A stretch of DNA of 30,596 nucleotides from a candidate division WOR-3 bacterium (GCA_965649215.1 CBFGJZ010000015.1:7781-38376); one strand, 5' to 3'; positions 2,647 through 26,271 are shown, counted from the first letter of the stretch. Numbers and translations: made by a program. Notes: generated from the sequence alone by a model not told the origin.

Positions 2647-4779
2647 CTAATCAACGAGTACTCTTTTATAAGTATATTGCTTATTAACATCGCTCAGCAA
2701 AAGAAAATAACAGCCCTTATTTAGTCTTTCGGTAAGTTTAAATATACCATTATTACTATAACTTTGATATATTCTCTTACCTGAGATATCATAAATCCTT
2801 AAATACAAAATATCGCTGTTATTATTTAGTATCTTAATTTGATTTGACGACATTAACAGGATTGGTTTATCAGTAGGATTTGATATTTCTTCTGTGACTG
2901 CACTACTTACCACATTACAACTACTTACTAAATAATCATTAACAGGATTTACATCATTAGCCAATTTGGTTGAACATTTCACGACATAACTACCGATATT
3001 AGTTGCATTCCAAACTGAATCAAAAATGAACTCATACTCTAAACCTGCATTAAGACCTACTCTTTGACTTGCTTGCCAATTACCAATTCTAAAATCAACA
3101 TCAAAATTCTCCCGCAGATTACCAAAGTTCTTAATCACAGCTCGGGGTTGAATTAACGAACCCTGGGTGATATTTCCGACTGGTGCAACAATTGAGATAA
3201 CTCCAACATCTTTAACTCTTACAAAAGTACGGCCGGTAATAGAATCATTTGACCTTCGTTGGTCATTGGGGATATATACTTTACATTTATAGTTTTGATA
3301 AGAACGACTTAATAAGGTGCACGGTGTAAAATTAATAAGCATTGAATCATTGGCATTGAGATTGACATTAACAGTTTGCAGATAAAAATCACCAACACTT
3401 AAGGTAACAGGAAAAGATTCAAAACCCGTGCCATAGTTCTTAACGATTGCCTGCGGATTAATTACCGCACCCGAGTCAACCATTGTTACAAAACCACTCA
3501 ATGAAACTACTCCAACATCATTATTAATATCGAGATAAGCGCTATAAGAAAATGGTAAAGCTCCCGTATTATATTCCCATTGACAAGCAGTTGGGATTAA
3601 AGCGAAATGGTCATGCTCACCCCAGGCAAGAGTATCACCACCATTACCATTAGTATTTAAAGGTATCTCATATACAGTGGAGAGTCCATTAGGACGATAT
3701 CCGATAATATGGCACTTCCAACGATACACACTCTGAGCATTGAAATAGACCCTTAAATCACCACCGCCATTAGTAAATTGAATATAACTTGTCCCACCTG
3801 GATTTGAAACCGCTGAATTTCCTTGGTCGCCCGTTGCTGGATAACTATTATGATTTCTTAAAATACGGACTTGTGGCCAAAGATGTCCTTCTTTATAATA
3901 ATGCAAAGTATCTGCCCGATTGCCTGTAAAATAACGCCAAACCGCATATTCTTTTAAAGCATTAACTAAATTAGAGCCATATTGATTTGTTAAAATATAT
4001 TCCATACCTGAAATTGTATTCTGACCGGCAATAGTACCTTGATAATGCCACATTTGACGAACACAGTCGTTACCAAAGCGTTCGGTTAAGTACATAGGCC
4101 AAACACAACCAGCATACTGATACACATTATTAAAAGTATTAATTGGATACTCGGGTGTTGTAAATGGCCCTGGCGAAGTTGACAGAAATCCTAAATAATC
4201 ATTATACTCATCATAAACAATCTCTTCGCTCCAAGTTGCACAATTCTCCATCCACCATGAACCTTCGTTACTGCTATAACGAAATTGAATTGCATGATGA
4301 AACTCATGGCAAGTTGTTGATTTTAAATAATTATAATCCATGTCAACACCAACTCGAAAATGCGAACAAACACCATCGGGATAGGGATTGGGATAACTAT
4401 TTTCAGCATAAGTCACGCCGGCAATACCTGATGGTAATGCTTTAATATAAACATCATAGCGATTATCACCACCTTGATTATAGTCTGGTGGGGGTGGTGC
4501 CCATCCGAGTGTATCAACTAACTTTGCCCAACTATAACGCATTGCACTTGCAACCGTTTCAGCATAAGCAACAGAAACCGCATCAGTCCCTTGGGTTGTA
4601 AAATGAACTCGAAAATTAGTATCTTCAATATATTGGACTGGACCAGATAAAGTTGGTCGGGCTCTTCTCACGCCTAATCGCCATTCTTCTAAAGCAGGGA
4701 TTGTTCCACACCAATCAGTCGCCGGTCGGCTATAAATAAAACTTATAACAATAAATAATAAAATAACAATTTTTTTCAT
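2647..4779 (-). CDS. Secreted zinc metalloprotease (MXAN_6640-like) with two Ig-like repeats and a T9SS-type CTD
   Basis: Signal peptide MKKIVILLFIVISFIYS; HEFHHAIQ zinc motif followed by WWMENCATW; two DVGV...VKN(Y/F)G Ig-like repeats; C-terminal IYDISGK...KGCYFL...KRVLVD. Confidence 0.8.
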   Translation of the reverse strand: MKKIVILLFIVISFIYSRPATDWCGTIPALEEWRLGVRRARPTLSGPVQYIEDTNFRVHFTTQGTDAVSVAYAETVASAMRYSWAKLVDTLGWAPPPPDYNQGGDNRYDVYIKALPSGIAGVTYAENSYPNPYPDGVCSHFRVGVDMDYNYLKSTTCHEFHHAIQFRYSSNEGSWWMENCATWSEEIVYDEYNDYLGFLSTSPGPFTTPEYPINTFNNVYQYAGCVWPMYLTERFGNDCVRQMWHYQGTIAGQNTISGMEYILTNQYGSNLVNALKEYAVWRYFTGNRADTLHYYKEGHLWPQVRILRNHNSYPATGDQGNSAVSNPGGTSYIQFTNGGGDLRVYFNAQSVYRWKCHIIGYRPNGLSTVYEIPLNTNGNGGDTLAWGEHDHFALIPTACQWEYNTGALPFSYSAYLDINNDVGVVSLSGFVTMVDSGAVINPQAIVKNYGTGFESFPVTLSVGDFYLQTVNVNLNANDSMLINFTPCTLLSRSYQNYKCKVYIPNDQRRSNDSITGRTFVRVKDVGVISIVAPVGNITQGSLIQPRAVIKNFGNLRENFDVDFRIGNWQASQRVGLNAGLEYEFIFDSVWNATNIGSYVVKCSTKLANDVNPVNDYLVSSCNVVSSAVTEEISNPTDKPILLMSSNQIKILNNNSDILYLRIYDISGKRIYQSYSNNGIFKLTERLNKGCYFLLLSDVNKQYTYKRVLVD

Positions 4780-5429: not shown

Positions 5430-8400
5430 TTACTGCACGATAATTTTCGCTTCTGCACTGTTTGTACCATCATTATACTTTAAGAAGTAGACGCCACTCG
5501 AAACTTTTGGTAACAATGTCGTATAATTACCTGCTTCAAGATACCCGTCATTTAGGGTTTGGATTAATCGACCTGAAGCATTGTAAAGTTTTATTGTAAC
5601 TTTACCCGACATCGGTACTGTATAATTAACTGTTCGTGAGAACGGATTTGCAATAAAGTTAAAGGTTAACTCGTTGGTTGTATTATTAGTAGTGGAAACA
5701 ATCGTAACTGGTTCTTTCTTGGTAAATTCAATTGGCGCAACTCCATAGTACCAGAACTCATCAAGTTTATTACCTTTAAGCAGATATACTTTGAAGTCCC
5801 AATACGCAAGTGCAGCACCGGTCTTTGGCACTGATTTTTTACCCATGGAGGTCCGTGGAATTGTGCACAAACCAGCCCAACTATTCGTAACCGGATCATA
5901 CGCCCAGAAGTCTTGTTTACCAGCGCCCTTAATCGCATATAGATATGTGCCATCATTAGTTAAAGCACCGCCATCACCTACTTTTGTCTTTTTAGGTTTA
6001 GCGATCATCGTTGTATCATATGCTTGTGGAATTGTTTCTAAGAATGCCCAACCACCACTTTCAGTATATGCTAAGAATAGATTCCATTTATCTTTTCCTT
6101 TTAATGCATAAATAACACCATTCATTGCACTCAATGCAGAACCATCACCCCACTTCTTATTATGTGGTTCATGTGGTGCTGCGGTTAATGTTGACCAAGT
6201 ACTCGTTGCAACATCATAAGCAAAGAAGTTCGGGGCATTTTGACTCTGTCCTGCGGCTAAGAGATAGACTTTACCATTATCATAAGTAATCGAAGAACCA
6301 CCTTTTAGTTTTGCAGGTGGTACAAATGAATCAGGCATCCAGGTGTCTGATGAAATATCATATTTCCAGAATTCACGAGTGCCATTACCTTTAATCGCAT
6401 AGATTGTGTTCGCACCATCCCAACATAACGAAGCACCTTTACCAGGATACTTTTTATTTTCAGAAGTAGTACCAGGTTTTACTGTAAATGGTATGCTGGC
6501 TTTATCAGTCCAAGTCGTACCATCAAAGAATTTGAATTCACCTGATTTAAAACCTTTGAACGCATAGATACCATTGTTAGTAGCAACCATCGCACCGCCG
6601 TCTTTCACATATTTAGGTGGGTCATTAGTTGGTATTGACACAGATTGATTCCAAGTTGCAGGACCAGGTGGCGGTGTACGCGTAACGACAAAATCATCAA
6701 TCAACCACCAATAAGCATCAAATGCATAATAACGGAATGCAATCTTAACATTATCACAACCACTAACCAATTCCGTAATATCATAGGTCTTATAGCCAGA
6801 ATCCACAACGACCAAATCCGAGCCACCAGCAAACATATCAACCAGAGTCCATTCGGTGCCACCATCAGTACTCAATAATACATAACCAGTGTCAGGTTCT
6901 GTAGAATATCCACGATACCAATGCCAGAAACTCAAAGTATAAGTTCCAGCACCACTGCAATTTAATCGTGGCGAAATTAACCATTCGTCTTGTAATTCGG
7001 GTGGATTATTTTCAATATCATAACGAGCAGCAGCAACACTACGGGACGGATTTGCTAAACTACCATGGAACCAATCATTAAAGTTCCATGCTGGAGTAGG
7101 TTCATTACCATAATCTTGAATTATCCAACCGCAGAATGGTGGATTATCACCAAAGGTACCCCACTGTTCGTTAAAGTCTTTTGTATATGTTGGTGTATGT
7201 CCTGCAGGAGAACAAACTGCAACTTGAATTGTTGCTGTGTCATTATTTAGATATTCATCAGTCGCTAATTTAGTATAAGCTCTGAAATTAAATAATGAGT
7301 TGACCGTATTACAATTCCATTGAGTTGTAAATTCGTATTCAACCTCTTCGCCTAATGCTAAACTCCCTGTCCAGGTTTCATTCACTTCACTACCGTGTCC
7401 AGGATAAAAAGCAACGGGAATTGAAGTTTGAGTATTTAAGCCATAGTTCTTTATCTTAACTTTAACAGTTCTTGTTTCACCAACCCAGATCGGTCGTGGT
7501 CCGGGAATTGTTATTTCTGTAATGCCGACATCATTCATATTTGCTTCCCATGATACGAAGGAACCAATAAACAATTCACCATAGGTCCATGCAGTCCATC
7601 CTTCTGCAGTTGGTGTACCATAAAAACTATGTCCATCTGGGTCGTTATCGGCACAAGAAGAAGGCATACTATCAACTCGCGGTGCCAACGCAACATAATA
7701 ACCACCACTACCAACAGTTACTGGTGGAACAACTGGATGCGTAACAATAATTTCACCCCATTGACTGGTTGGAATTACTCTAATTGTGTCAGATTCATAA
7801 AGTAATGTCGAACCATCACCAGCATAAATTTTGAATTTAAAAGTTGAATCAGTCCAAGGACGATTACCCCAAACAAACGCTGCTTTGACAGTATCAATTG
7901 TTACAGGATAGGCAACACCAAAATCAGGTGGGGTAAAATATGTTGCTCGTTCTGGACCACCCCAAGTATAATAAGCAAAATTATCCCAATCTGCATAAGT
8001 TAGCCAATTAGTAACTTCAATCGTCTTGGTAATAGTATCATTCCCAGGAATTTGATCGCCTGCTAATTCGGTCCAGACTTTTAGAGTATAAGTGCCTAAG
8101 CCATATGGTGCTTGCCAATTAGGACTAAAGACGATCGTAGTCGTATCACCTTGATTGAGTGTAACTGAAGTAACTTCGTTTAAGTCTTCATATACATATC
8201 CACCTGGACCAGTGATACGCATTTTTACAGGTAGTCCTGCAGATACTGCATTTAAACCCATATTTTGCACTATTGCGGTGATTGGATAAGTTCGGTATGG
8301 AGCAGTTGTTTTCGGAGCATCTACAAAAGCAGTTTTCATATCCCAATTAACGGGAGTAAAAGAAATATAGGCACCAAAGAAAAATTCACCATTAGTCCAA

Positions 8401-9011
8401 GGTGTCCAACTACCTGGCGAACCACTAAAACTTCTTCCGTCAGAAACACCATCTGCTAAAGTTGAAGGATGACCACTCGCATCACGCGGTCGTACTGCTA
8501 AATAAAAATTACCTGAAGTAATTACTACTGGCGGATTAACGTTTGTTGAACATGACGATGCAGTTGGATATGGTACTGCCTGTAAAGTATCAGAAACCCA
8601 TAAAAGAGTTATCCCATCATCTCCATAAATTTTAAACACATATTGGTTATCTGGCCAAGGATAATTTGGATGTTCATAAAAAGTCGCTCTAACTTTGCTA
8701 ATTGTACAAGGATAACTGATACCAAACTCAATCGGAATAAATTGAGTTGCCCGTTCCGGTCCTGCCCAAGTAAACCAGTACGGTGCATTATCACCATAAG
8801 TATACCAGTTAGAATAAAAATCTTCAACGCCTTCCATCTTTGGTAGTTCAATTCGTAATGAATTCCCATTTCCGTTTTCAGTATTATCGTAAGGTTGCGT
8901 AATCATAGGGCCTTGATTTTTCGTAATCTTACTAAAATCAGAACCTAACCAGACACCTTCTGCAAATACCATTGCGACTAATACTAACAAGGTCGGTATT
9001 ACTTTTTTCAT
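5430..9011 (-). CDS. Large secreted/surface protein: duplicated N-terminal module with Ig-like domains, cleaved-adhesin-like domain, Kelch-like propeller and T9SS-type CTD
   Basis: Signal peptide; GGAGG SD; repeated TW(A/G)GPERAT(Q/Y)FxP; DEWLISP...WWLIDD adhesin-like segment; about six GG(A/S)L...IYA(I/L)KG...FW repeats; C-terminal NPF...LYNASGR...SGVYFL...KIIVQ. Confidence 0.8.
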   Translation of the reverse strand: MKKVIPTLLVLVAMVFAEGVWLGSDFSKITKNQGPMITQPYDNTENGNGNSLRIELPKMEGVEDFYSNWYTYGDNAPYWFTWAGPERATQFIPIEFGISYPCTISKVRATFYEHPNYPWPDNQYVFKIYGDDGITLLWVSDTLQAVPYPTASSCSTNVNPPVVITSGNFYLAVRPRDASGHPSTLADGVSDGRSFSGSPGSWTPWTNGEFFFGAYISFTPVNWDMKTAFVDAPKTTAPYRTYPITAIVQNMGLNAVSAGLPVKMRITGPGGYVYEDLNEVTSVTLNQGDTTTIVFSPNWQAPYGLGTYTLKVWTELAGDQIPGNDTITKTIEVTNWLTYADWDNFAYYTWGGPERATYFTPPDFGVAYPVTIDTVKAAFVWGNRPWTDSTFKFKIYAGDGSTLLYESDTIRVIPTSQWGEIIVTHPVVPPVTVGSGGYYVALAPRVDSMPSSCADNDPDGHSFYGTPTAEGWTAWTYGELFIGSFVSWEANMNDVGITEITIPGPRPIWVGETRTVKVKIKNYGLNTQTSIPVAFYPGHGSEVNETWTGSLALGEEVEYEFTTQWNCNTVNSLFNFRAYTKLATDEYLNNDTATIQVAVCSPAGHTPTYTKDFNEQWGTFGDNPPFCGWIIQDYGNEPTPAWNFNDWFHGSLANPSRSVAAARYDIENNPPELQDEWLISPRLNCSGAGTYTLSFWHWYRGYSTEPDTGYVLLSTDGGTEWTLVDMFAGGSDLVVVDSGYKTYDITELVSGCDNVKIAFRYYAFDAYWWLIDDFVVTRTPPPGPATWNQSVSIPTNDPPKYVKDGGAMVATNNGIYAFKGFKSGEFKFFDGTTWTDKASIPFTVKPGTTSENKKYPGKGASLCWDGANTIYAIKGNGTREFWKYDISSDTWMPDSFVPPAKLKGGSSITYDNGKVYLLAAGQSQNAPNFFAYDVATSTWSTLTAAPHEPHNKKWGDGSALSAMNGVIYALKGKDKWNLFLAYTESGGWAFLETIPQAYDTTMIAKPKKTKVGDGGALTNDGTYLYAIKGAGKQDFWAYDPVTNSWAGLCTIPRTSMGKKSVPKTGAALAYWDFKVYLLKGNKLDEFWYYGVAPIEFTKKEPVTIVSTTNNTTNELTFNFIANPFSRTVNYTVPMSGKVTIKLYNASGRLIQTLNDGYLEAGNYTTLLPKVSSGVYFLKYNDGTNSAEAKIIVQ

Positions 9012-13225: not shown

Positions 13226-13720
13226 ATGAAACATTGTAGTCTTTGTCAAAAACCCGAAGTTACTATTATCATTACGACCATTGATAAAGATGGAAAAGTT
13301 TGTGAGCTTGCTTTGTGTAAGGAATGCGCCGAAAAAAAGGGTGTCGGTGAAATAAAAAAATCTTTTCTCCCCCCTCAAGTTATCTTATCTGAACTCCAAG
13401 AAAAAATCACTAATGATGATTATCAATTAACTTGTCCTGCTTGTGGTATCTCCTATGCTGATTTTCGTAAACATGGTCGTTTAGGTTGTGAAAATTGTTA
13501 TCTCGCATTTAGTGAAAAATTGGAAGTACTTATTAAACGATTGCACGGCACAACCAGTCATATTGGTAAATCGGTCACACCCAGTAAAAAACTAGTTGCC
13601 GATCGTTTTGAAATAAAAAAATTACAGTTGAGTCTCAAAAAAGCAATCCAAGAAGAAGATTATGAAAGAGCTGCTGCGATTCGTGATCAAATTCGTCAAA
13701 TTCGGCAAAACACAACATAA
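13226..13720 (+). CDS. mcsA: Protein-arginine kinase activator McsA
   Basis: Four CxxC pairs, GRLGCxxCY, HG...HIGK, C-terminal UVR motif EDYERAAAIRDQI; adjacent to mcsB. Confidence 0.93.
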   Translation: MKHCSLCQKPEVTIIITTIDKDGKVCELALCKECAEKKGVGEIKKSFLPPQVILSELQEKITNDDYQLTCPACGISYADFRKHGRLGCENCYLAFSEKLEVLIKRLHGTTSHIGKSVTPSKKLVADRFEIKKLQLSLKKAIQEEDYERAAAIRDQIRQIRQNTT

Positions 13721-14838
13721 TGATGCGTAACGAAGCTTTAACTCTAATAAATAAAACGGTCCCGCCTTGGCTTGACCAAGAAAGTCAAAATTCTTCGATT
13801 GTCATTTCAAGTCGTGTTCGGTATGCGCGAAATTTAGCTGGTATTCCTTTTCCCAACCGCGCATCTAACTATGAATTAAACCAAGTATATAATATGATAA
13901 GCGAAAGTATTAAAAAAGATTCTGATCTGAAAACAATTTTTCCTGTTCACAATCCTATTGCGTTAGATAGAATTACGCGACTGCAAGCAGAATTTCTCTT
14001 AGAACGACACCTTATCTCTCCTGATTTTGCTCAGAAATGTATACCCCGCAAAGATATAAAAAATAATCATCATCTCAAAGCATATGGTGTTGCCGTTAGT
14101 GAAGATGAAACTGTCAGTTTAATGATTAATGAAGAAGATCATATGCGTCTTCAAGTGATTATGAGCGGATTGAATTTTGAACAAGGTTTTAATCGTCTAA
14201 ATTATATTGATAATAAATTTGAATCTTTACTTCGCTATGCTTACTCACCTCGCTATGGTTATCTTACCGCTTGTCCAAGTAATATTGGTACTGCATTGCG
14301 GGCATCCATCTTAATACATCTCCCGGCTTTGGTGATTACCAAAGAAATTGAAAAGACCCTTCGTGCAATTTGGCAAATTAATTATATGGTTCGTGGTCTT
14401 TATGGCGAAGGCACAGAAACTAAAGGCTATCTTTTCCAAATATCCAATACTAGTAGTTTGGGACAATCTGAAGCTGATATCATAACCAATATTACCAAAA
14501 TCGCTCAGGAATTAGTTAATTATGAAGAACAATCACGTGAATATTTACTTAAAAATATGAAATTAGAAATTGAAGATAAGATTTATCGCGCTTATGGTTT
14601 ATTAACGAGTGCTCGTCTCTTAAGCAGTGAAGAAGCATTAAATCTTTTAGCAACGGTACGACTTGGCGTCGCAACCCAAATTTTAACTAATGTTTCATTA
14701 AGCACTTTAAATAAAATTATGATTCTTTTAAAACCTGCTAATTTACAATTATTCTATAATCAGAAAATGACACCTCAGGAAAGAGATGAAAAACGTGCTT
14801 CCCTTATTCGTCAAATTTTATCCGAACAAAAAAATTAA
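13720..14838 (+). CDS. mcsB: Protein-arginine kinase McsB
   Basis: SSRVRYARN, ERHLIS, MINEEDHMR, GYLTACPSNIGT, VRGLYGEG, FQISN; TAATG overlap with mcsA. Confidence 0.94.
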   Translation: MMRNEALTLINKTVPPWLDQESQNSSIVISSRVRYARNLAGIPFPNRASNYELNQVYNMISESIKKDSDLKTIFPVHNPIALDRITRLQAEFLLERHLISPDFAQKCIPRKDIKNNHHLKAYGVAVSEDETVSLMINEEDHMRLQVIMSGLNFEQGFNRLNYIDNKFESLLRYAYSPRYGYLTACPSNIGTALRASILIHLPALVITKEIEKTLRAIWQINYMVRGLYGEGTETKGYLFQISNTSSLGQSEADIITNITKIAQELVNYEEQSREYLLKNMKLEIEDKIYRAYGLLTSARLLSSEEALNLLATVRLGVATQILTNVSLSTLNKIMILLKPANLQLFYNQKMTPQERDEKRASLIRQILSEQKN

Positions 14839-14851
14839 AGTATCTTTCTTC

Positions 14852-14880
14852 TTGACAAATCTCGTTTTTTTTACTAATCT
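14852..14880 (+). promoter_or_regulatory. Putative promoter for speB
   Basis: TTGACA, 17-nt spacer, TAATCT. Confidence 0.5.
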
Positions 14881-14925
14881 AGCTAATTCGAAAATATTCG
14901 TATCCATATTAATGAATTTATAAGT

Positions 14926-15771
14926 ATGCATTTTGATTTTGCGAACGCATCTTATCAAGAAGCAGATTATATTATTGTTGGCATTCCTTATGACCGAAGT
15001 AGTTCTTTTGTCCCCGGCAACCGCTTTGGACCTGCTTTTGCTCGGATCGCTTCTATGAATGTTGAAAGTTATAGTCCTTATTTTCAAAAAGATTTAAATA
15101 GTTTAAATATCCATGATGCTGGTGATCTTAACTTACTCTTTAGCTCAACCAAACAAACCTTTACGCAAATTCAACGCTCGATTCGAAAACATTTACTCAA
15201 AAATAAACGAGTCCTCGTAGTTGGTGGAGAACATACAATTACAATACCGATCGTACACGAATTATCAAGACATTATCCGAATTTATACTTAATTCAACTT
15301 GATGCTCATTCGGATACTCGCGATGAATTATTAGGCGATAAATATTCCCATGCTACCGTTATTAAACGTATTCGCGAATTCCTGCCCGAAAAACGCATTT
15401 ATCAATTGGGTCTTCGCTCCACAACTTCTCCTCAAGAAAACCCTCAACAATATCTATTCTCGGTTCAAAAATATCTCGATAATATTCAAAAACACATTGG
15501 CCGTAATCCTTGTTATCTAACTTTAGATATCGATGTCTTAGATTGCGGTATTTTCCCCGCAGTACAAACACCAGTACCCAATGGCATAAGTTATCAAGAG
15601 CTTTTTAATTCAATTATCAAATTAAGCAAATCAAATATTATTGGTTGTGACATTGTCGAATACAACCCAATGATTTCTAACAGTCTAACTTATGCATCAG
15701 TGATTGCAGAAATCATTCGAGAATTAATTCTGATGATGTCTCAATCACAGTTTAAATATGCACCCAAATAA
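14926..15771 (+). CDS. speB: Agmatinase (ureohydrolase family)
   Basis: GIPYD...RFGP, GGEHTIT, DAHSD, DIDVLD and TPVPNG motifs. Confidence 0.88.
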   Translation: MHFDFANASYQEADYIIVGIPYDRSSSFVPGNRFGPAFARIASMNVESYSPYFQKDLNSLNIHDAGDLNLLFSSTKQTFTQIQRSIRKHLLKNKRVLVVGGEHTITIPIVHELSRHYPNLYLIQLDAHSDTRDELLGDKYSHATVIKRIREFLPEKRIYQLGLRSTTSPQENPQQYLFSVQKYLDNIQKHIGRNPCYLTLDIDVLDCGIFPAVQTPVPNGISYQELFNSIIKLSKSNIIGCDIVEYNPMISNSLTYASVIAEIIRELILMMSQSQFKYAPK

Positions 15772-16065: not shown

Positions 16066-16221
16066 ATGTGTTGCGAAGTATGTCCTTATTATGATGAATG
16101 TCGCGATATGGAAACGCTCAATGAAAATTGTTGTCCTGAATGTCCTGATTATGAAGAATGCCAAGCGAATGAAAAATACGACGAAGAAGATACAGATTTT
16201 ATCGCGGATGACGAATACTAA
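16066..16221 (+). CDS. Cys-rich microprotein B (51 aa, acidic)
   Basis: Below the ORF-track length cutoff. AAAGGAGG SD; translation MCCEVCPYYDECRDMETLNENCCPECPDYEECQANEKYDEEDTDFIADDEY; its stop overlaps the convergent gene's stop by 4 nt. Confidence 0.87.
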   Translation: MCCEVCPYYDECRDMETLNENCCPECPDYEECQANEKYDEEDTDFIADDEY

Positions 16222-18308
16222 TTAACCACCGCAAATTTTAAAATTAACTTCTCTTTTGGTGTTGTTACGAGCGCTAAATAAATACCCGTAGCAATATTAA
16301 TTGGTCTCCACCTTACACCGCAATAAATAGGATTGGTCAATAATTCACAAATATAATTTCCCTGTAAGTCAAATATTTTAATTTTTGCAGATTGTGGCAA
16401 ACTATCAAAAGTTATCACTGAATGAATGGTTTTACTAAACGGATTAGGATATATTCTTACCCGATTGAGAGTAGTTGTTGATGTTATCTGAAAATTATAT
16501 TGACTAATCCCTTCTTTTGTCGCAATAAGTAAAAAACCATTTTCTTCATCAACATATAACCATTGGTAAAATTTTTCGTCATTATCTTCATTCGCGATTA
16601 TGCCACAATTAGAAGCTGTATAGTGTGACCACCGATTAGAAAATATATCATAAGAAGATAGACCTTGCGGATGTAACATCCACACCCTACCCCATTTATC
16701 TGATTTAATTCGAACGACTTTATCATTGAGAATCTGTGAATTGGTAGTATTATAGGTACGAAAAGTATCTTTTTCTAAAATAACCGCTCCTTGATTTGTC
16801 GCACACCAAACTCGATTATTAAGATCAACTGTTAGCGACATAATTTCTAAATAGGAATAGATTTTTGAAACAATATCAGATAAATTATTATCATTATATT
16901 TTATTCGCAATAAACCGCCTGACCAACCTAACCAGCCTGTATTTTCTCTATCAAAAACTAATTCATACCCATGTTTTTCAGGTCTCGATAGCCCTGGTAT
17001 TGTAAATTCATAAACTGAATCGTCCGTAAGGGCGATCAAAGTATTAGCTTGGTTATGAAACCATTTAACTTGATTATTATCAATCCCTAAGGCACCAACA
17101 ACTCCTTTAAGTCCAGACCAACTTTTTACTAACCATGAGTCATTAATTGGATCATATCGAGTCAATCCTCCATTAAGTATCCAATGACCAAACCAAATAT
17201 AATTGTCATTATCTATAACTGCAATATAACTATTTGCAATCGAATCCAATAAAATTTGCCAATTGTTATTTGACTTCTTTAAACTGATTATTTGATTACC
17301 AACCGGATAGTGCATTGCATAAATATTGCCCTCGCGATCAGAAATTGCACTTGAAACAATATTCATTGCTAATCCATTATTTTTAAACTCCTGCCAACTG
17401 TTATTTTGTTGTAATTGTAGACCTCCCCCCAGATAAACATAACCACCCACTCCAAGCCAAAGTCCATTGGAAAATAAAATTGAACGAGTATCTTCGTTAA
17501 AAATAAAAGATAAATTATTACCATTGTATTGTAATAGACCATTGCGGGTTGCCACATAAAATTTATTATCATAATAAGCTAGATCAAAAATTGTATATCG
17601 CTCGGGAAATAATACTACCATCTCAAACCCCGTTCCATTAAAACGAGCAATGCCTTGTTCTGTGGCAATGTGCAAAGTATCATTGACAACAAGCATTGCT
17701 TTGACAGAATCACCAAACGGATGTAAAATGATATTGTAATTTTGGAGATTACGGTTTAACCTAATAAGTCCAGGACACGCACTAATCCAAAAATCATTAT
17801 GCACGCCTATCGCAAATACTTGGCACGAAACTTGACTTGGTAAGATTCGAGCCATGACTACATCGTCATCTATTGATGCCGTACCTCGGGTATCAATCAC
17901 AATAAGACCATTTTGAGTGCCTGCTAAAATTGTATCTCCGCTCCGTGCTAAACAATTAATTGTATTCTGTTCTATTGAACCTAAATCGCGATAACAGTTT
18001 ATTTGTTTTGTGGTGGGGTCAAAGATTGCAATACCACGATTTGTCCCGAGCCACAATTTTTGATTGCTATCAAATAACAGACAATTTATCCGATTTGAAG
18101 GTATGCCATCAACATTAGTATAAACTCGTATAAAACTACTTTCACTTTTGGAAAAAACTGTGAAACCACCGCGTGTTGCGCAGTAGAGATAATCATTGTC
18201 TGCAGTTATATCGTTAATAAAATTAGTATTCGTATATGTCTTCCATGCGTTGCCGATTGCAACATTGATGAGGATAACAGTTGTAAAAAATATCTGTTTT
18301 ATTGTAAT
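16218..18308 (-). CDS. PorZ-like / two-component-regulator-type beta-propeller protein with CTD (about 696 aa; start extended to ATT 18308)
   Basis: The frame is open 84 codons upstream of the track's TTG start, adding a signal peptide and WKTYTNTNFINDI...YCATRGG...YTNVDGIPSN propeller blades. C-terminus IYPNPF...IFDLQG...TGIYLA...KFAVVN. Confidence 0.75.
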   Translation of the reverse strand: MTIKQIFFTTVILINVAIGNAWKTYTNTNFINDITADNDYLYCATRGGFTVFSKSESSFIRVYTNVDGIPSNRINCLLFDSNQKLWLGTNRGIAIFDPTTKQINCYRDLGSIEQNTINCLARSGDTILAGTQNGLIVIDTRGTASIDDDVVMARILPSQVSCQVFAIGVHNDFWISACPGLIRLNRNLQNYNIILHPFGDSVKAMLVVNDTLHIATEQGIARFNGTGFEMVVLFPERYTIFDLAYYDNKFYVATRNGLLQYNGNNLSFIFNEDTRSILFSNGLWLGVGGYVYLGGGLQLQQNNSWQEFKNNGLAMNIVSSAISDREGNIYAMHYPVGNQIISLKKSNNNWQILLDSIANSYIAVIDNDNYIWFGHWILNGGLTRYDPINDSWLVKSWSGLKGVVGALGIDNNQVKWFHNQANTLIALTDDSVYEFTIPGLSRPEKHGYELVFDRENTGWLGWSGGLLRIKYNDNNLSDIVSKIYSYLEIMSLTVDLNNRVWCATNQGAVILEKDTFRTYNTTNSQILNDKVVRIKSDKWGRVWMLHPQGLSSYDIFSNRWSHYTASNCGIIANEDNDEKFYQWLYVDEENGFLLIATKEGISQYNFQITSTTTLNRVRIYPNPFSKTIHSVITFDSLPQSAKIKIFDLQGNYICELLTNPIYCGVRWRPINIATGIYLALVTTPKEKLILKFAVVN

Positions 18309-19730: not shown

Positions 19731-21206
19731 CTAACTTGTGATTGTCTTAATCAACTTTTTTTGGTGATTGAAGATATCGATCGTTAATTTGAGCGTGCCT
19801 AAACTATGTGAAGCACATCCAAAACATGGGTCATAAGCTCTGAAAAACATCTCCACCATATTCAAGACACCTTCATCCCATTGTGTCTTGTTTTGATTTG
19901 GTCTTATTAATTCTTTAGCAGCATTACGAATTGACATATTTATAACCCCATTGTTATTGGTTGTGGCAACAATCATATTTACTTTTTTAATTAATCGATC
20001 ATCAGTTAATTCATAATGATGGAACAAGGTACCCCGCGCCGCTTCAACAACGCCAATGCCGCTCTCTTGAAAATGAAAATCTAAATTCCGAATCTTAGTG
20101 CCGGTAATTTCTGAATCCGTAATTAATTCAATAGCTCGTTCAGTTGCATATAATAACTCAATCAATCGTGCCCAGTGAAATGCTAAAGTACTAGTCACGG
20201 GTTTGGTATGAAAAGTCTCATACATTATTTTGTATTCTTCGTTGGCTTTTGGTGTTGCCATACCGTCAGCCGCATTCAAACGACCTAAAGGACCAACTCG
20301 ATATAATCCTGAATCAGAACCTTCAGTTAATCCCTTGAAACCAATATCTTTTAAGTATGGTATTTTTACATAAGACCATTCAACAACTGCTTCACCTAAA
20401 TATTTTAGGTAATCTTGGGCTTGAAATTTTATGAATTCTTTTCCGTTTGGGTCAGTAACACGAATTAAACCATCATAAAAATTAACATTATTATTTTTAT
20501 CAACCATACCCATATTATAAACATTTAAACCTAATGCTGGATTAGTTATTAAACTCATATACTGGGGATTTTCAAGCACGATCTTATGGAATAAGTTTAA
20601 TGTTTTAAGGGCAAAATCATAACACGAACGAGCCATTTTTTCAATTTCAGCTCGTTCTTCTGCATTAAGACCTTTGCTAACACCGCCGGGTAGACCGCAA
20701 ACTGGATGCGTTGCTTTGCCACCTAATATCTCGGTAATTTTTTGTCCATATGCGCGATGTTTAATAACCTCACCAGCCAGTTCTAAACCGACTTTTTCAA
20801 TAACCCCTAATATATTTCTTTTCTCCTTCGGAGCAGTAGGACCAACTATAAAATCAGGTCCAGCTAAAAAATAAAAATGTAAGATATGATCGTAAATAAT
20901 ATAACCACAATAAGTCAATTCTCTTAACTCTTTAGCTAAAGTTGGCACTTCCACTCCAAATGCCATATCTAAAGCTTTCGTTGCTGCAAAATGATGTGCT
21001 ACTGGACAGACACCACAAATGCGTGATGTCAATTGCGGCATATCTTCAGCTTTACGACCTTCACAAAACTTTTCAAAACCTCTCAATTCGGGAACTTGTA
21101 GATAGCTTTCCTTTACTTCTCCTTTTTCATCTAAGAAAATCTCGATTTTACCATGTCCTTCTAATCTTGTAATTGGATCAATAGTAATTCTTTTTATATT
21201 TGACAT
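19731..21206 (-). CDS. mvhA: [NiFe] hydrogenase large subunit, group 3 (MvhA-like)
   Basis: TRLEGHG, RGFE, L1 motif [22 protein letters not shown]2 motif [12 protein letters not shown], followed by a 24-aa C-terminal extension. Confidence 0.85.
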
Positions 21207-21210
21207 ATGC

Positions 21211-22200
21211 TTATCTCTTTTTCTTATTAATAATTGCGGCAGCTAAGCCATACATGTAAAAAGTCCCAACTGGGTCTTTAATCTTAGCCGTTAATTTTAA
21301 AACATCTTCTTCACTTAATTTCTTTTCTTCATCAATCTTAAGAATCGAACCGATAGCGCTAATCATCTTTGCGCCTTGATCTAATACTTCAGGAATCGGT
21401 CCTAGGCAACCTGTACAAGGCCAATTGCCATTAATACAACGGGTTTGACAGCCACTTCTAGTTGCAGGTCCCATACAGATAATGCCTTGTTCTAAAAAAC
21501 ATTTTTTATTGTCGGCTTCGATTTCATATATTCGTTTTATATCCGGCATTCTTTTATGTTCACTGGTATTACGAACACACTCATCACAAAGTGCTTTAAT
21601 CGGAGCTAATACCGTTCCTTTCTCGGGCAATTTATTATTAGCAATCACGTCAATTGCATTAGTTATCAATTGTACTGGAGGTGGACACCCTGGCAAGTAA
21701 TAATCAACATCAACAACTCGATTCAAGGGTCGCACTTCATCATAAAATTCCGGAATTGTCAATTCACCTTCTATAACTTGTGATTTCACTTTCGGCATTT
21801 TATTATCAGTATTAACTGTGGAAGCTGTATCTTGATAAACAGTTTTTAAGATTGCTTCTTTACTATGTAAATTAGCCAAACCGGGAATACAACCATGATG
21901 CGCACACGAACCAAATGCAATTAAAACTTTTGCTTTTTTACGCAGTAATTTAGCTAAATGTTCTTGTTCAGAATTACGTACCGAGCCGTTAAAAAAGCAC
22001 ACATCCATATAATTGTCAGGAAAATTTTCCACATCGTTGTATTTTACATCCATTGCCACAGGCCAGAAAACAATATCAGCAAGATTTATCACATCCAAGA
22101 TTTTTTCGTTTAAATCAAGGACTGCGATCTCGCAACCTCCACAAGATGCTGCCCAATAAAAACCAAATTTTAATTTATTATTTGATTGTTTACTCGTCAT
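21211..22200 (-). CDS. mvhG: [NiFe] hydrogenase small subunit (MvhG-like)
   Basis: SCGGCE, GSC, PGCPP proximal cluster ligands; CDEC...KCF...ICMGP...C...C...PCTGC medial and distal ligands; no Tat signal. Confidence 0.85.
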   Translation of the reverse strand: MTSKQSNNKLKFGFYWAASCGGCEIAVLDLNEKILDVINLADIVFWPVAMDVKYNDVENFPDNYMDVCFFNGSVRNSEQEHLAKLLRKKAKVLIAFGSCAHHGCIPGLANLHSKEAILKTVYQDTASTVNTDNKMPKVKSQVIEGELTIPEFYDEVRPLNRVVDVDYYLPGCPPPVQLITNAIDVIANNKLPEKGTVLAPIKALCDECVRNTSEHKRMPDIKRIYEIEADNKKCFLEQGIICMGPATRSGCQTRCINGNWPCTGCLGPIPEVLDQGAKMISAIGSILKIDEEKKLSEEDVLKLTAKIKDPVGTFYMYGLAAAIINKKKR

Positions 22201-22628: not shown

Positions 22629-23258
22629 TTATTTGATAATACCCAACCAATCTCTTAATAAGAATGTTAAACGTCCAATGAGTAAGGAAATACGTGCCAT
22701 TACCGTATAGCCAAACGAAGCACCAAATCCGAGCATAATGAAAATTATACCTGTATAAGACAATGGTTTAAAAATACCTTTACGCTCTTTTGAGAAGAAG
22801 AAATAACTAATGGTTGCAATTACACCTATTAATATTACTACCGCCCAGATTCCGTTATAGAGATAAAGAAAACTTCCCCTGGTCACAATTGTTGCTCGTA
22901 CTTGTTCAACGATTGAAGCGTCAATCGCTCGAGGAATTGAAGCACCTGCTCCATAACCCATTACAACTGCAATCGGAATTCGAACCAGCCAGGAAATTTT
23001 TGGAATAAAACGAGTAAAATACAAAGCGCCAATAATCGCAATTGCAATCAACCACAAACGTTGTCCATGGGCAATCGGATCAATCAAAGCTGGAACTAAA
23101 ACCCGATGCCACACAAAAGTAATTGAATAGCCGTTAGAGATACCGACGAATAAATGTTCGCAAATCCGATAGAATGGATTTTCTTTATATAAGAATGAAA
23201 AAATTCCTAAAGTTAAAATCGCACTTATCCAAATCCAAGGGTTAGTTGAAACGGTCAT
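22629..23258 (-). CDS. Uncharacterised polytopic membrane protein (4th gene of the DUF6754-like module)
   Basis: About six hydrophobic segments; SFLYKENPFYRICEHLFVG and FGASFGYTVMARISLL; GGAGG SD and ATGA overlap with the upstream gene. Confidence 0.85.
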   Translation of the reverse strand: MTVSTNPWIWISAILTLGIFSFLYKENPFYRICEHLFVGISNGYSITFVWHRVLVPALIDPIAHGQRLWLIAIAIIGALYFTRFIPKISWLVRIPIAVVMGYGAGASIPRAIDASIVEQVRATIVTRGSFLYLYNGIWAVVILIGVIATISYFFFSKERKGIFKPLSYTGIIFIMLGFGASFGYTVMARISLLIGRLTFLLRDWLGIIK

Positions 23259-24148
23259 TTTTTCCTCCTGCGCATAACAAAATAACCAATATTACCAATA
23301 ATAATTGTCACCATAATCCAGATATGAGCAGCAGTTTGAGATGACATTGCATCCGTTGCCTTTCTCCGACCATAGACATGACAACGCTCTTCCACCAATT
23401 GTTCATATTCGGCACCGCCTTTCATTCCCGACATCATTCCTGTCACTTGTCCGGAATTAAGATACGGATAAAAATCTGCAGCTTGCACAGCTGTAGAACC
23501 AGCCCCAATTTTTACACCAAACGAAGTTTGAGCATAAGTAATATAATAAAATGGAATTGCACTTCCCGCAATTGAAACTAAAATTGCGACATCATTATAA
23601 TTCTTAATCGTCTTCATCACAGGCAAAGTATCGGTTTTATTGCCATAGTAATCAACTGGAAAAACTTTAGCGATATTTTCACCCATCCCCATAATAGGCA
23701 CTAAAACCGGTGTCTGCCAACCCCAGAACACATAATCACGACCATAAATGATACTATCTTCATAGGTTAAGGCTCGGCTATTAAACTCGTTAGTCACCGT
23801 CGTAATCGCATCTTGTGCTAATCCCAACCCCAGTAAAGAAATACATAAAATCCCCACTTTCACCCGTCGCGCAAACGCATGCCTTAGTAAAGCAATCGAC
23901 ATCGGATGCAATTCAGGCTCTGTATCTGGTGTGTAATCAACAGAAATCACTAAACACTTATCATCAGGAATCGTATCAATATAGTTAAACAATTTTTCTA
24001 CGGGGGGCATTGCTTTGGGTCTTAACTTAAATGGAAAAATCAACGGAATCACCACCACTAACAATAAAAGTAAATAAATGACCCTTCGATCTATTTTCGC
24101 TAATCGTTCCCAACCAGTCATTTTTATATTTTTATCGTTATCCGTCAT
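23255..24148 (-). CDS. Uncharacterised membrane protein, TM-alpha/beta-TM (3rd gene of the module, about 297 aa)
   Basis: Start moved to ATG 24148 because of AGGAGG SD and ATGA overlap with the upstream stop. Motif YPYLNSGQVTGMMSGMKGGAEYE; C-terminal RRRKK. Confidence 0.85.
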   Translation of the reverse strand: MTDNDKNIKMTGWERLAKIDRRVIYLLLLLVVVIPLIFPFKLRPKAMPPVEKLFNYIDTIPDDKCLVISVDYTPDTEPELHPMSIALLRHAFARRVKVGILCISLLGLGLAQDAITTVTNEFNSRALTYEDSIIYGRDYVFWGWQTPVLVPIMGMGENIAKVFPVDYYGNKTDTLPVMKTIKNYNDVAILVSIAGSAIPFYYITYAQTSFGVKIGAGSTAVQAADFYPYLNSGQVTGMMSGMKGGAEYEQLVEERCHVYGRRKATDAMSSQTAAHIWIMVTIIIGNIGYFVMRRRKK

Positions 24149-24804
24149 TTTGTCCCTCCTAACCAACCACGTTCAATACCCAGAATAATCTTGAGCGAAG
24201 TCGCTAACGAACCAAGCGCAATACCAAATCCCATTCCCCGTTTAGCTGCGGTGTTGGGTACCGTTAAAATCCATTCTGCAAATCCTGGTAATTTTGGTAA
24301 AAGATAACTACTTAAAGGCACGGAACCCAACATCATAATAAACGCTGCAACTAAAAGCAAAGTTGCTTCAAAGTTGCGAGCTCGAAATGCTCGATATGCT
24401 GCTGAAGCCATAAAAAATGATAGCATTGCAAACATTGTTGCACCCAACGGAATTGCCATATACATATAGATGGTCTGAATATCAAAATGAAAATTACCGA
24501 TTCTTGTTGGTAACCGGCCGGTTCCTTCAATGCCTCCAAATAAGCCAATTATTGAAGTAGCAACTAAACTAATTAAAAGAATCCAACTATACTCCCAATT
24601 TTCCCGCTTATGCTGGATTTTATACAGATGATGACGAATGATACTACCAACACCTAATACCAATGAAAATGCCGCAATAATTCGTAATACTGAATTCCGA
24701 AACTCATTATCAAAATTTTGAGCAATACTATGAGGAATAATAAAAGGTAAAGCGCCTAAAATACCCGTAACTAAAACTAAAAAAAGTGGTAATCTAATCT
24801 TCAT
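24145..24804 (-). CDS. Uncharacterised polytopic membrane protein (2nd gene of the module)
   Basis: About six hydrophobic segments; FFMASAAYRAFRAR and PNTAAKRG...ILGIER; AAGGAG SD. Confidence 0.85.
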   Translation of the reverse strand: MKIRLPLFLVLVTGILGALPFIIPHSIAQNFDNEFRNSVLRIIAAFSLVLGVGSIIRHHLYKIQHKRENWEYSWILLISLVATSIIGLFGGIEGTGRLPTRIGNFHFDIQTIYMYMAIPLGATMFAMLSFFMASAAYRAFRARNFEATLLLVAAFIMMLGSVPLSSYLLPKLPGFAEWILTVPNTAAKRGMGFGIALGSLATSLKIILGIERGWLGGTK

Positions 24805-24816
24805 ATAACTCCTTAA

Positions 24817-26271
24817 TTAAAAGATATTTAAAACTTGTAAATTTGTTAATAAGCCGATTAAAGTCGCAATAATTAAAATACCCACGATAATTGCTTTTCC
24901 CCAATCCTGACCGATTAAACCCCCTAATAATAATGGTTCTCGGGATAGATAAGCTGATGCTGCATATAACTCTTCACCCATTAAAGTATAATCGCAAGCT
25001 ACAATGAAAAATGGCAATTGCATCACGGAATCGGTTCCGGCAATTTGTACTGCACCCGTTGATGCGCCGGTTTCTGCCAAAATTAATGCTTCAGCATAGA
25101 AATAACCCATAAAGAAATTAGTGGCTGGTCGTTCGCGCGTCATTATACCATCAACTGCTGCTGCATATGCAAATTGACTATCGGTCACAAAATAGACAGA
25201 ATCCGCTTTAAATGCATCAGGACGACCTGCTTGAGTATATGCTTCTTTAACAACTTCTTGAGCTACGGTATAAACAATTGGATCAGTATTGGGCACAATT
25301 AACTGCGAATCATAAGTAGCAATTTTTTTGGCAACTTCACCTAAAATATTCATCGCTGCTATTGTTGCAACATCACTAATACCTGTCAAACCTGGCACAT
25401 AAAGAATTGGTTTTCCCATTTCAGTTGCACGACCAACTGCTTCATCAACGGCTAAAAGACCCGCGATTTTCCGTACAAAAAGATTTGCACCTTTTTTTGC
25501 GCGATTAATGTAATATATAATAAGAAAAGTAAATATCAGCGTGAATATTACGACATTAAATCTTTCTGTATGAAACCACTGTTGTTTTGAAGATACGAAG
25601 TCTGACCATTCTGATGCTGCTGATTCTAAATCCTGCACTGCTAATATCTGATAAGCATATTTTACACCGTCAATCGTGTTTTCATCAATAAATTGATTAC
25701 GACCAGAACCAATAAACCCGACCTGAGTTATGCTTGAAGTGATAATTTTTAATACAACTCGACGATTTCGCCAATATTCTAAAGAATCTTGTGTTACTAA
25801 ATTTTTCTCACCATAACTAATAATACTTATATTAGATGTATCTAATCCTGCGCGTTTAAAATAATTTTGAACTGATTTTGCACGCTTTAGACCAAGAGCA
25901 ACATTATAATCTGAATTACCAATTGGGCAGGTATATCCTTCTAGTAGACATTTATAGTCTTCAGTAATTTTTAAATCTTGTATAATAGCACTAAGCATAT
26001 TTACATCAGATGGTTGAATATCAAAACTATTAAAATCAAAATATATCGTTTTCGATATTACTGAAGAAGAATCTTTTACTTTTCTTAGTATTTTATAACC
26101 TTCTAAAAATTGATCGGATACGGATAACTGCCAGTTAATGATTATTTTACCACCTGCATCATTTGGTGCATCTTTAGCAATTACTTTTGTCGGTGGTTCA
26201 ATATTGTTAGCAAATATCGGTATTACATTTATCAATATGAATATAACGAATAGTGATATTTTAAACTTCAT
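24817..26271 (-). CDS. Signal peptide + FN3 domain with inserted OmpA/Pal-like domain + DUF6754-like membrane domain (1st gene of the module)
   Basis: IYFDFNS...EGYT...YNVALGLKRA...SYGE...NRRV is OmpA-C-like; WQLS...GYKILR and FID...YAYQI are FN3 strands; GRATEMGKP...AEALILAETG...GEELYAASAYLS is recalled as DUF6754 and needs HMM confirmation. Confidence 0.8.
   Translation of the reverse strand: MKFKISLFVIFILINVIPIFANNIEPPTKVIAKDAPNDAGGKIIINWQLSVSDQFLEGYKILRKVKDSSSVISKTIYFDFNSFDIQPSDVNMLSAIIQDLKITEDYKCLLEGYTCPIGNSDYNVALGLKRAKSVQNYFKRAGLDTSNISIISYGEKNLVTQDSLEYWRNRRVVLKIITSSITQVGFIGSGRNQFIDENTIDGVKYAYQILAVQDLESAASEWSDFVSSKQQWFHTERFNVVIFTLIFTFLIIYYINRAKKGANLFVRKIAGLLAVDEAVGRATEMGKPILYVPGLTGISDVATIAAMNILGEVAKKIATYDSQLIVPNTDPIVYTVAQEVVKEAYTQAGRPDAFKADSVYFVTDSQFAYAAAVDGIMTRERPATNFFMGYFYAEALILAETGASTGAVQIAGTDSVMQLPFFIVACDYTLMGEELYAASAYLSREPLLLGGLIGQDWGKAIIVGILIIATLIGLLTNLQVLNIF

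Follow-up and report, generated by a model that had tools for sequence, protein, structure and literature searches.

The closest described relative of the system reported here is the Pfam family DUF6754 (PF20539), whose members belong to a four-gene cassette and which is the sole catalogue entry for that unit. Other described systems resemble it in part. These are the GlmL/MutL proteins (PF13941), actin-fold ATPases that include the glutamate mutase accessory factor GlmL, which we take to be a reactivase or chaperone of that enzyme, and, as analogies, the Na+-NQR and Rnf complexes and the group II energy-coupling factor (ECF) transporters, in which one shared energising module serves several membrane S components. 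We analysed a stretch of 30,596 nucleotides (nt) from a candidate division WOR-3 bacterium (GCA_965649215.1, CBFGJZ010000015.1:7781-38376), hereafter the window, which carries at positions 22,629 to 26,271 on the minus strand a unit of four membrane-protein genes that we call g1 to g4. The unit is very probably a member of a conserved DUF6754 system that is linked to a PF13941 ATPase and to a soluble protein, g0, both of which are encoded elsewhere in this genome.

The unit is like the DUF6754 cassette in its PF20539 match and in having the gene order observed in other genomes, while it differs in that g1 carries an OmpA/Pal-like insert and in that the ATPase and g0 genes are here unlinked from all three DUF6754 units of the genome. 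The ATPase of the system matches the GlmL/MutL family but exceeds the Pfam model by about 150 amino acids (aa). The stretches read contained no mutase gene next to it, and in 19 of the 77 loci compared below an ATPase lies beside g0 and a membrane unit. The group II ECF transporters provide a functional analogy only, in that one ATPase/partner set is present with three diverged units and conservation is highest on the face that is predicted to contact the shared part. However, the ATPase is of the actin fold and not of the ABC type, and none of the subunits has a match to an ECF or ABC family. With Na+-NQR and Rnf the analogy is architectural only. Common to both are a soluble cytoplasmic subunit with a barrel-sandwich domain of the RnfC_N/NqrA_N type (matches of g0 are weak and sub-threshold), a subunit with a transmembrane (TM)-anchored periplasmic domain, and two six-helix subunits of about 200 aa with opposite predicted orientation. 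In contrast, g2 and g4 have no match to an Rnf-Nqr family, no conserved Cys/His ligand sets and no flavin or iron-sulphur family were detected, and the fold of g3 is Rossmann-like rather than FMN_bind.

A sequence-only reading of the window had described four membrane-protein genes, each with a Shine-Dalgarno sequence, joined by a 12-nt gap and two ATGA overlaps, and all of these were found as described. The first gene, g1 (24817-26271), starts 15 nt after the purF stop and is preceded by a weaker AAAGGAAA. Its product of 484 aa begins with a putative Sec signal peptide (residues 1-21, 26209-26271), read from two Lys, a hydrophobic run and a small-x-small end (IFA before NN). An Fn3-like ectodomain follows, with the OmpA/Pal-like domain (residues 77-165, 25777-26043; PF00691) sitting in one of its loops, and then the DUF6754 region (residues 229-479, 24835-25587), which comprises a TM helix (~238-256), six beta-alpha units and a C-terminal TM helix (~460-478). 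A 12-nt spacer containing AAGGAG (24805-24816) separates g1 from g2 (24145-24804), which encodes a polytopic protein of 219 aa with six hydrophobic segments and an N-terminus predicted inside. The g2 stop and g3 start overlap in ATGA (24145-24148), with GGAGGG ahead. From this ATG, g3 (23255-24148) encodes 297 aa, with a TM helix at ~23-40, a Rossmann-like domain at ~42-262 that is predicted to be periplasmic, and a C-terminal TM segment at 263-296; an alternative start, a TTG at 24166, adds six codons. The second ATGA overlap (23255-23258), with AGGAGG ahead, joins g3 to g4 (22629-23258), which encodes 209 aa and is polytopic with about six hydrophobic segments and an N-terminus predicted outside. 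Downstream of g4 is a gap of 428 nt in which no terminator-like site was found by consensus scan, and the promoter and terminator counts of that scan were at chance level.

Pfam assigned DUF6754 to g1 with 397.4 bits (E 2.7e-119, profile positions 2-252 of 257), against a gathering score of 27 bits, and OmpA (PF00691) with 59.9 bits (E 3.3e-16, cut-off 27.2 bits). NCBIfam matches to g1 were sub-threshold and of the Pal/OmpA type only. No Pfam family was found above cut-off for g2, g3 or g4, nor an NCBIfam family for g2, and searching every member of the g2, g3 and g4 alignments (83, 96 and 78 members, respectively) with Pfam gave no consistent family. Neither an ABC ATPase nor an ABC or ECF membrane family was found in the four-gene unit by Pfam and NCBIfam. 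Searches of the ESM Atlas with g2 and g4 returned only clusters named 'hypothetical', and the g3 family comprised 5381 cluster representatives at E <= 0.001 among 1.84 billion. Among 97 sequences of DUF6754 there were 34 invariant columns, including Cys-Asp, Glu-Glu and Gly-Arg-Ala-Thr-Glu-Met-Gly, and polar invariants in or at TM helices were observed in both g3 (H275, N286) and g1 (D456, K459).

Conservation of the unit was examined in a scan of one genome per species, which gave at least 593 pattern matches, 587 of them confirmed, and from which 77 distinct loci were kept. Hidden Markov models made from the three paralogues of this genome were run on all open reading frames (ORFs) of these loci. 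They span Latescibacterota, Zixibacteria, Eisenbacteria, Fermentibacteria, Stahlbacteria, Edwardsbacteria, Coatesbacteria and Cloacimonadota, as well as Ignavibacteria, Gemmatimonas, Brocadiaceae/Scalindua, Poribacteria, Nitrospirota, Methylomirabilis, Armatimonadota and Desulfuromonadaceae. Seventy-nine of the 100 DUF6754 genes in the 77 loci were followed by g2, g3 and g4 in this order, an additional 14 were too close to the end of the locus to tell, and seven were exceptions. The exceptions were two solo g1 genes (L027, L069), two loci with g3 doubled (L037, L040), a g1-g1 arrangement (L007), a split g1 (L020) and an ORF-calling artefact (L019). Tandem arrays of two or three units were frequent. 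Two units in tandem were observed in nine loci, and in six more a partial unit precedes two complete ones, while a single g1-g2-g3-g4 set within the 6-kb flanks was observed in 39 of the 77. The flanking genes differed from locus to locus.

Three DUF6754 genes are present in this genome (1.64 Mb in 39 contigs, 95.1% complete), on contigs C5, C11 and C15, and homologues of g2, g3 and g4 follow in the same order at C5:61353-64629, at C11:30311-33651 and in the window. A quick IQ-TREE phylogeny placed the three copies in three separate clades, each with orthologues elsewhere (Shimodaira-Hasegawa approximate likelihood ratio support of 100, 98 and 99), and the three copies are therefore old paralogues. 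Identity among the three units was highest in the DUF6754 part (61-75%), followed by g4 (48-58%) and g2 (43-55%), with the g3 domain at 36-47% and the ectodomain at 36-40%. An inner face that is conserved and outer faces that have diverged fit one shared cytoplasmic partner set with different clients outside.

The candidates for this partner set are the ATPase and g0. The genome has one PF13941 gene, encoding a GlmL/MutL-like actin-fold ATPase of 600 aa (contig C1, E 5.4e-127), of which positions 1-450 are matched to the family (E 3.3e-126) and which sits between gcvPB-like and serS-like genes, as read from translations. ATPase genes were observed in 19 of the 77 loci, their products being 62-73% identical to the copy of this genome across phyla. 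The second candidate, g0, is a conserved soluble protein of about 375 aa that has no family and is encoded directly upstream of g1 in 13 loci; tblastn found it in 20 of the 77. Here it is a single-copy, three-part protein of 376 aa, unlinked to the units (C14:5297-6427). Its mean column identity across phyla was 62%, and it had at least 8000 relatives at E <= 1e-5, with all names among the 120 matches listed being 'hypothetical protein' bar one 'KOW domain-containing protein'. Matches of g0 to RnfC_N, NqrA_N and biotin-lipoyl barrels were weak and sub-threshold (best E 1.9e-4), its tail is KOW-like, and a profile search of PDB sequences gave weak matches only (best E 0.092). Directly before the ATPase gene lies an ORF of 117 aa (L085:1109-1462, contig C1) that has a hydrophobic stretch at its centre, a tail rich in Lys and no Pfam family, and relatives of which were found by tblastn at the equivalent place in 16 of the 77 loci; this ORF may encode a further subunit. 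Where the genes are linked in other genomes, the order is small ORF, ATPase, g0 and then g1 to g4 (e.g. L023).

We also compared 151 genomes sampled from the phylum and found DUF6754 in 135, g0 in 132 and PF13941 in 134. Between one and six DUF6754 matches were present per genome, mostly two or three, while g0 and the ATPase were mostly present once. In one genus, all 15 of 15 genomes were without DUF6754, g0 and PF13941. The sequence-only reading had seen no ATPase, binding protein or enzyme, which is true of the four genes themselves, but an ATPase and g0 belong with them by gene order in other genomes and by joint presence and absence. Its proposal of an uncharacterised four-subunit transporter or channel is supported in part: the four genes form one conserved unit, but the associated proteins argue against a self-contained secondary transporter or channel. 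A second, diverged pair of ATPase and g0-like matches was observed side by side at G034:C48, G050:C4, G022:C101, G055:C14 and G005:C15, with E values of ~1e-105 to 1e-113 for PF13941 and of ~1e-40 to 1e-47 for the g0 profile. Several of these g0-like matches have one or two in-frame stops, and they may be separate genes or broken copies.

The orientation of the subunits was approached through counts of lysine plus arginine (K+R) over 78-97 sequences per family. In g1, the family mean over 15 residues was 4.4 after the TM helix that follows the ectodomain, compared to 1.7 before it. This bias, together with the Sec-like signal and the OmpA/Pal domain, which acts in the periplasm, places the DUF6754 domain in the cytoplasm. 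The two tails of g3 had means of 3.6 and 3.2, compared to 1.7 and 2.0 on the domain side, an excess that places the g3 domain outside. Natural variants of the subunits were also observed. In one locus (L043) the g2 loop that connects helices 3 and 4, which is outside by charge bias, accommodates a g3-like domain (E 5e-30). In a natural g3-g4 fusion (P0255; g3 E 4.9e-69, g4 E 3.3e-51) the linker contains precisely one additional hydrophobic segment, as a g3 C-terminus inside and a g4 N-terminus outside require. One g3 relative carries an insert of CARDB repeats (29.2 bits), a domain that is usually extracellular, and another carries HEAT repeats at the same site, which is uninformative as to the side. 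Judging from these charge counts, the fusion and the insertions, the g1 and g3 domains most likely lie on opposite faces of the membrane, in agreement with the sidedness first proposed for them.

Further variants of g2 and g3 were noted. A large insertion in the helix 3-4 loop was found in two g2 genes, L043:1255-2598 (the g3-like insert) and L051:7040-8818. One g3 protein has two tandem soluble domains (P0125), and in three others a single site behind the third helix holds an insert, made up of CARDB or HEAT repeats or unassigned (P0137, P0226, P0161). Export of g3 by the twin-arginine translocation (Tat) pathway was considered because of a near-invariant Arg-Arg before its first TM helix and was rejected, as no TatC (PF00902) was found in the 95.1%-complete genome by a search that was positive in 11 of 14 controls.

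The C-terminal half of g1 (g1C) and g3 had been described as sharing a TM, alpha/beta and TM layout, and AlphaFold2 models bore this out. The mean predicted local distance difference test score was 89.7 for g1 residues 225-484 and 94.7 for g3, and both models consist of a long TM helix, a helix, six beta-alpha units and a second long TM helix, with elements starting at near-equal residue numbers. The three motif pairs reported between the two proteins fall on equivalent elements (helix 3; strand 5 and the next helix; the start of the last TM helix), but their sequence likeness is not above chance. BLASTP gave nothing significant, with best E values of 0.57 for g1/g3 and 0.45 for g2/g4. Using alignments of 81-97 sequences, hhalign gave probabilities of 0.7% for g1C/g3 and 2.2% for g2/g4 and no signal in any of the six pairs, and the soluble domains alone scored 14.7 compared to 16.1 for a reversed control. 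The g2 and g4 proteins, predicted as N-in and N-out, respectively, also have unlike loop patterns. Fifteen PDB entries were common to the top-50 structure lists of the g1C and g3 models, but the VIA-align neighbours were generic Rossmann-like proteins only (e.g. Sir2, transhydrogenase dIII, KTN) and no family stood out. Foldseek found no match in the PDB at E <= 0.001 for either model, and the profile search of PDB sequences found none for g1C and three for g3, all with E > 0.2. Profile searches of the PDB thus gave no solved relative by sequence for g1C, g3 or g0. A canonical Gly-rich nucleotide-binding loop after strand 1 was not seen in either domain when read from the family alignments.

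By these models, g1C and g3 are alike in their fold, which is a common one, and in their unusual TM-flanked packaging, while their common descent is unproven. An inverted repeat in the evolutionary sense is likewise unproven, since no homology between g1C and g3 or between g2 and g4 was detected by BLASTP or hhalign. The look-alike parts are soluble domains, whereas the defining repeats of secondary transporters are membrane-embedded. A four-chain prediction of g2, g3, g4 and the DUF6754 part of g1 scored 0.70, with 0.00 and 0.00 when the partner, the DUF6754 part, was replaced and 0.71 when g3 was replaced, and so speaks neither for nor against binding.

The best explanation overall, to which we give slightly less than an even chance, is that the unit is one of three old paralogous inner-membrane units and forms the membrane part of a larger ATPase/g0 system that moves or handles a substrate. 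That this system is an ATP-coupled translocation machine is a possibility we advance more cautiously. It is more tentative again that the unit represents an exchangeable membrane component in a new class of machine driven by ATP, with a GlmL-like actin-fold motor rather than an ABC, P-type, V/F-type or AAA+ one and with one ATPase/adaptor set for several modules. In that case, every module would combine a pair of structurally similar TM-Rossmann-TM subunits, one on either face, with a pair of six-helix subunits in opposite orientation. Under the best explanation, the Fn3-like domain of g1 would lie in the periplasm and its DUF6754 Rossmann-like domain in the cytoplasm, the similarly folded domain of g3 would lie in the periplasm, and g2 and g4 would provide about twelve membrane helices. 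The single ATPase/g0 set would dock on the conserved cytoplasmic DUF6754 face of all three units, and ATP-driven movements would travel through about 16 helices and so reach the g3 domain and the Fn3 ectodomain on the periplasmic side. The end function would be a substrate moved or handled at the cytoplasmic membrane, presumably by transport, with a different client for each paralogue, and the Pal-like insert may additionally hold the ectodomain of this copy at the cell wall.

Several observations weigh against this explanation. The ATPase, g0 and the three units are on five separate contigs in this genome, so that the link to the ATPase is drawn from co-occurrence and from other genomes, and a single lineage accounts for the joint absence, which counts as one event. 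Discordant genomes were also observed, with g0 and the ATPase present without DUF6754 in one (G035, 77% complete), neither g0 nor the ATPase in another (G060), g0 missing from three (G103, G115, G150) and the ATPase missing from one (G023). No substrate-binding protein and no known permease fold were recognised by Pfam and NCBIfam in the unit and in the g2 to g4 families. The relatives of the ATPase, namely GlmL and presumably also EutA and DdrA, are in our understanding enzyme-repair factors and not transport motors, and the 34 invariant DUF6754 residues, including the Cys-Asp pair and Glu-Glu, also fit an enzyme.

The OmpA/Pal-like insert sets this copy of g1 apart. It was observed in one of 82 ectodomains scanned, while a weak Pfam fn3 match was observed in 15 of the 82. 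We found no such insert in the two paralogues, in the closest relative (L004, 87-90% identical), in the orthologue from the same family, or in two other genomes of the order, in which the long open frames are upstream read-through. Residues ~75-176 of g1 align to nearly the whole E. coli Pal domain (PDB 2hqs_H, E 4.7e-16), but unlike Pal and the C-terminal domain of OmpA, the domain here interrupts an Fn3-like domain that belongs to an inner-membrane protein. In the H-A-D motif the Asp is replaced by Cys, while the second Arg of E-R-R-A is kept (KRA). In Pal, as we understand it, this Asp and Arg bind the peptide stem, with the Asp contacting diaminopimelate, and the change to Cys makes peptidoglycan binding uncertain. 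A peptidoglycan tether, which had been proposed for this organism, is plausible for this copy but not assured: a Pal-like OmpA domain is present, yet it is peculiar to this one gene and one of its canonical binding residues is lost. The insert says little about the general function of the DUF6754 family.

An alternative that gives this insert more weight is an envelope-linked mechanical or tethering machine similar to the Tol-Pal, Mot and GldLM stators, which would deliver energy to periplasmic or surface structures via the Fn3 ectodomain and would be anchored to peptidoglycan in this copy. We consider this unlikely. The Fn3-like ectodomain is general (although the Pfam matches are weak), the conserved polar residues in or at the TM helices of g3 and g1 are suggestive of such a machine, and surface-related genes, described below, neighbour the C11 and C5 units and g0 in this genome. 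However, the Pal-like insert that would provide the anchor is restricted to the one ectodomain and has its Asp replaced, and no MotA/ExbB/TolQ-type or other stator family was detected by Pfam and NCBIfam in g2, g4 or their 83 and 78 relatives. The heterogeneous flanks across loci also argue against it, as do look-alike clusters in the ESM Atlas, which are leads only, from Bacillota, Chloroflexota and archaea, none of which has an outer membrane.

It appears improbable that the unit belongs to a membrane-bound enzyme complex, in which DUF6754, g0 or both would be catalytic, the GlmL-like ATPase would be a chaperone or reactivase and the membrane subunits would provide anchorage or channel the substrate. 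In its favour, the level of conservation in g0, the ATPase and the invariant DUF6754 columns is extreme for non-enzymes, the named family nearest to the ATPase comprises an accessory factor of an enzyme, and the fold neighbours are nucleotide-binding Rossmann-like proteins. Against it, the canonical Gly-rich loop was not seen after strand 1 in either domain and no cofactor or enzyme family was found in the Pfam, NCBIfam or PDB sequence searches. Several diverged units per single ATPase/g0 set also fit exchangeable modules better than one enzyme. A self-contained, ATPase-free, pseudo-symmetric secondary transporter or channel of four subunits, with g1C and g2 forming one half and g3 and g4 the inverted other, is very doubtful, because although the window cluster has no ATPase gene, single sets are common among the loci, g1C and g3 are alike in fold and layout on opposite faces and g2 and g4 are predicted N-in and N-out, no homology was detected between the supposed halves, g2 and g4 differ in their loops, the look-alike parts are soluble, and the ATPase and g0 track the unit, which argues against self-containment.

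Genes next to the system in this genome were also recorded. Directly before the C11 unit is a gene for a C25-type peptidase of 1168 aa with a type IX C-terminal sorting domain (C11:26797-30303, labelled from its translation), with counterparts by Pfam at L066:1-2229 (Peptidase_C25, Por_Secre_tail) and L020:1467-5189 (Peptidase_C25, FlgD_ig). As a neighbour conserved within one class of paralogues, the peptidase may be a client, or its position may be coincidental. The C5 unit is followed by a gene for a Wzi-like outer-membrane protein of 527 aa (PF14052, E 2.5e-18; L084:61-1641, which is C5:64661-66244), and g0 is followed by a gene for a PorV/PorQ-family protein (NF033709, E 8.7e-36; L083:1443-2360, which is C14:6443-7363). 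A link to type IX secretion was considered from the C25/Por-tail neighbours and the PorV-family gene and was not adopted, as the flanks across loci are heterogeneous; to our knowledge, many of the carrier phyla are not known for this secretion system.

The rest of the window contains housekeeping genes (glyA, eno, purF) and then the small and large subunits of a [NiFe]-hydrogenase. This pair (19731-22200, minus strand) lies 428 nt 3' of g4 and is followed by a sugar transferase gene, with no other hydrogenase subunits in the window. A Kelch-repeat protein of 1193 aa with a type IX sorting tail is encoded at 5430-9011 on the minus strand, and two large ORFs of 710 and 612 aa, on the same strand at 2647-4779 and 16218-18056, have no Pfam family. 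On the plus strand (13226-15771), genes for a UVR-motif protein and an ATP:guanido phosphotransferase adjoin an arginase-family gene, and the pair resembles what we take to be a protein-arginine kinase of the McsA/McsB type.

For this genome, the analysis adds that the genes of the system are dispersed, that one copy bears an OmpA domain, that one genus has jointly lost the components, and that fusions and insertions bear on the topology. A full-text search, with subscription journals outside its coverage, found no paper on DUF6754, PF13941, GlmL with ASKHA, or the system. Uncultured bacterial phyla carry the system widely, and leads, but no more, place it in archaea as well. Three of the four proteins of the unit match no described family, yet a genome of 1.64 Mb spends three loci on it and 135 of the 151 genomes of the phylum keep it. 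Handles for experiments exist in the copy with the OmpA domain, in the natural fusions and in the genus without all three components. Should the link to the ATPase correspond to a functional complex, the system would be a major type of energy-coupled membrane machinery that has gone unrecognised. It would then operate in many of the phyla that dominate sediments, bioreactors and sponges, including the anammox bacteria, Nitrospirota, Poribacteria and candidate phyla of the Fibrobacterota-Chlorobiota-Bacteroidota (FCB) group.

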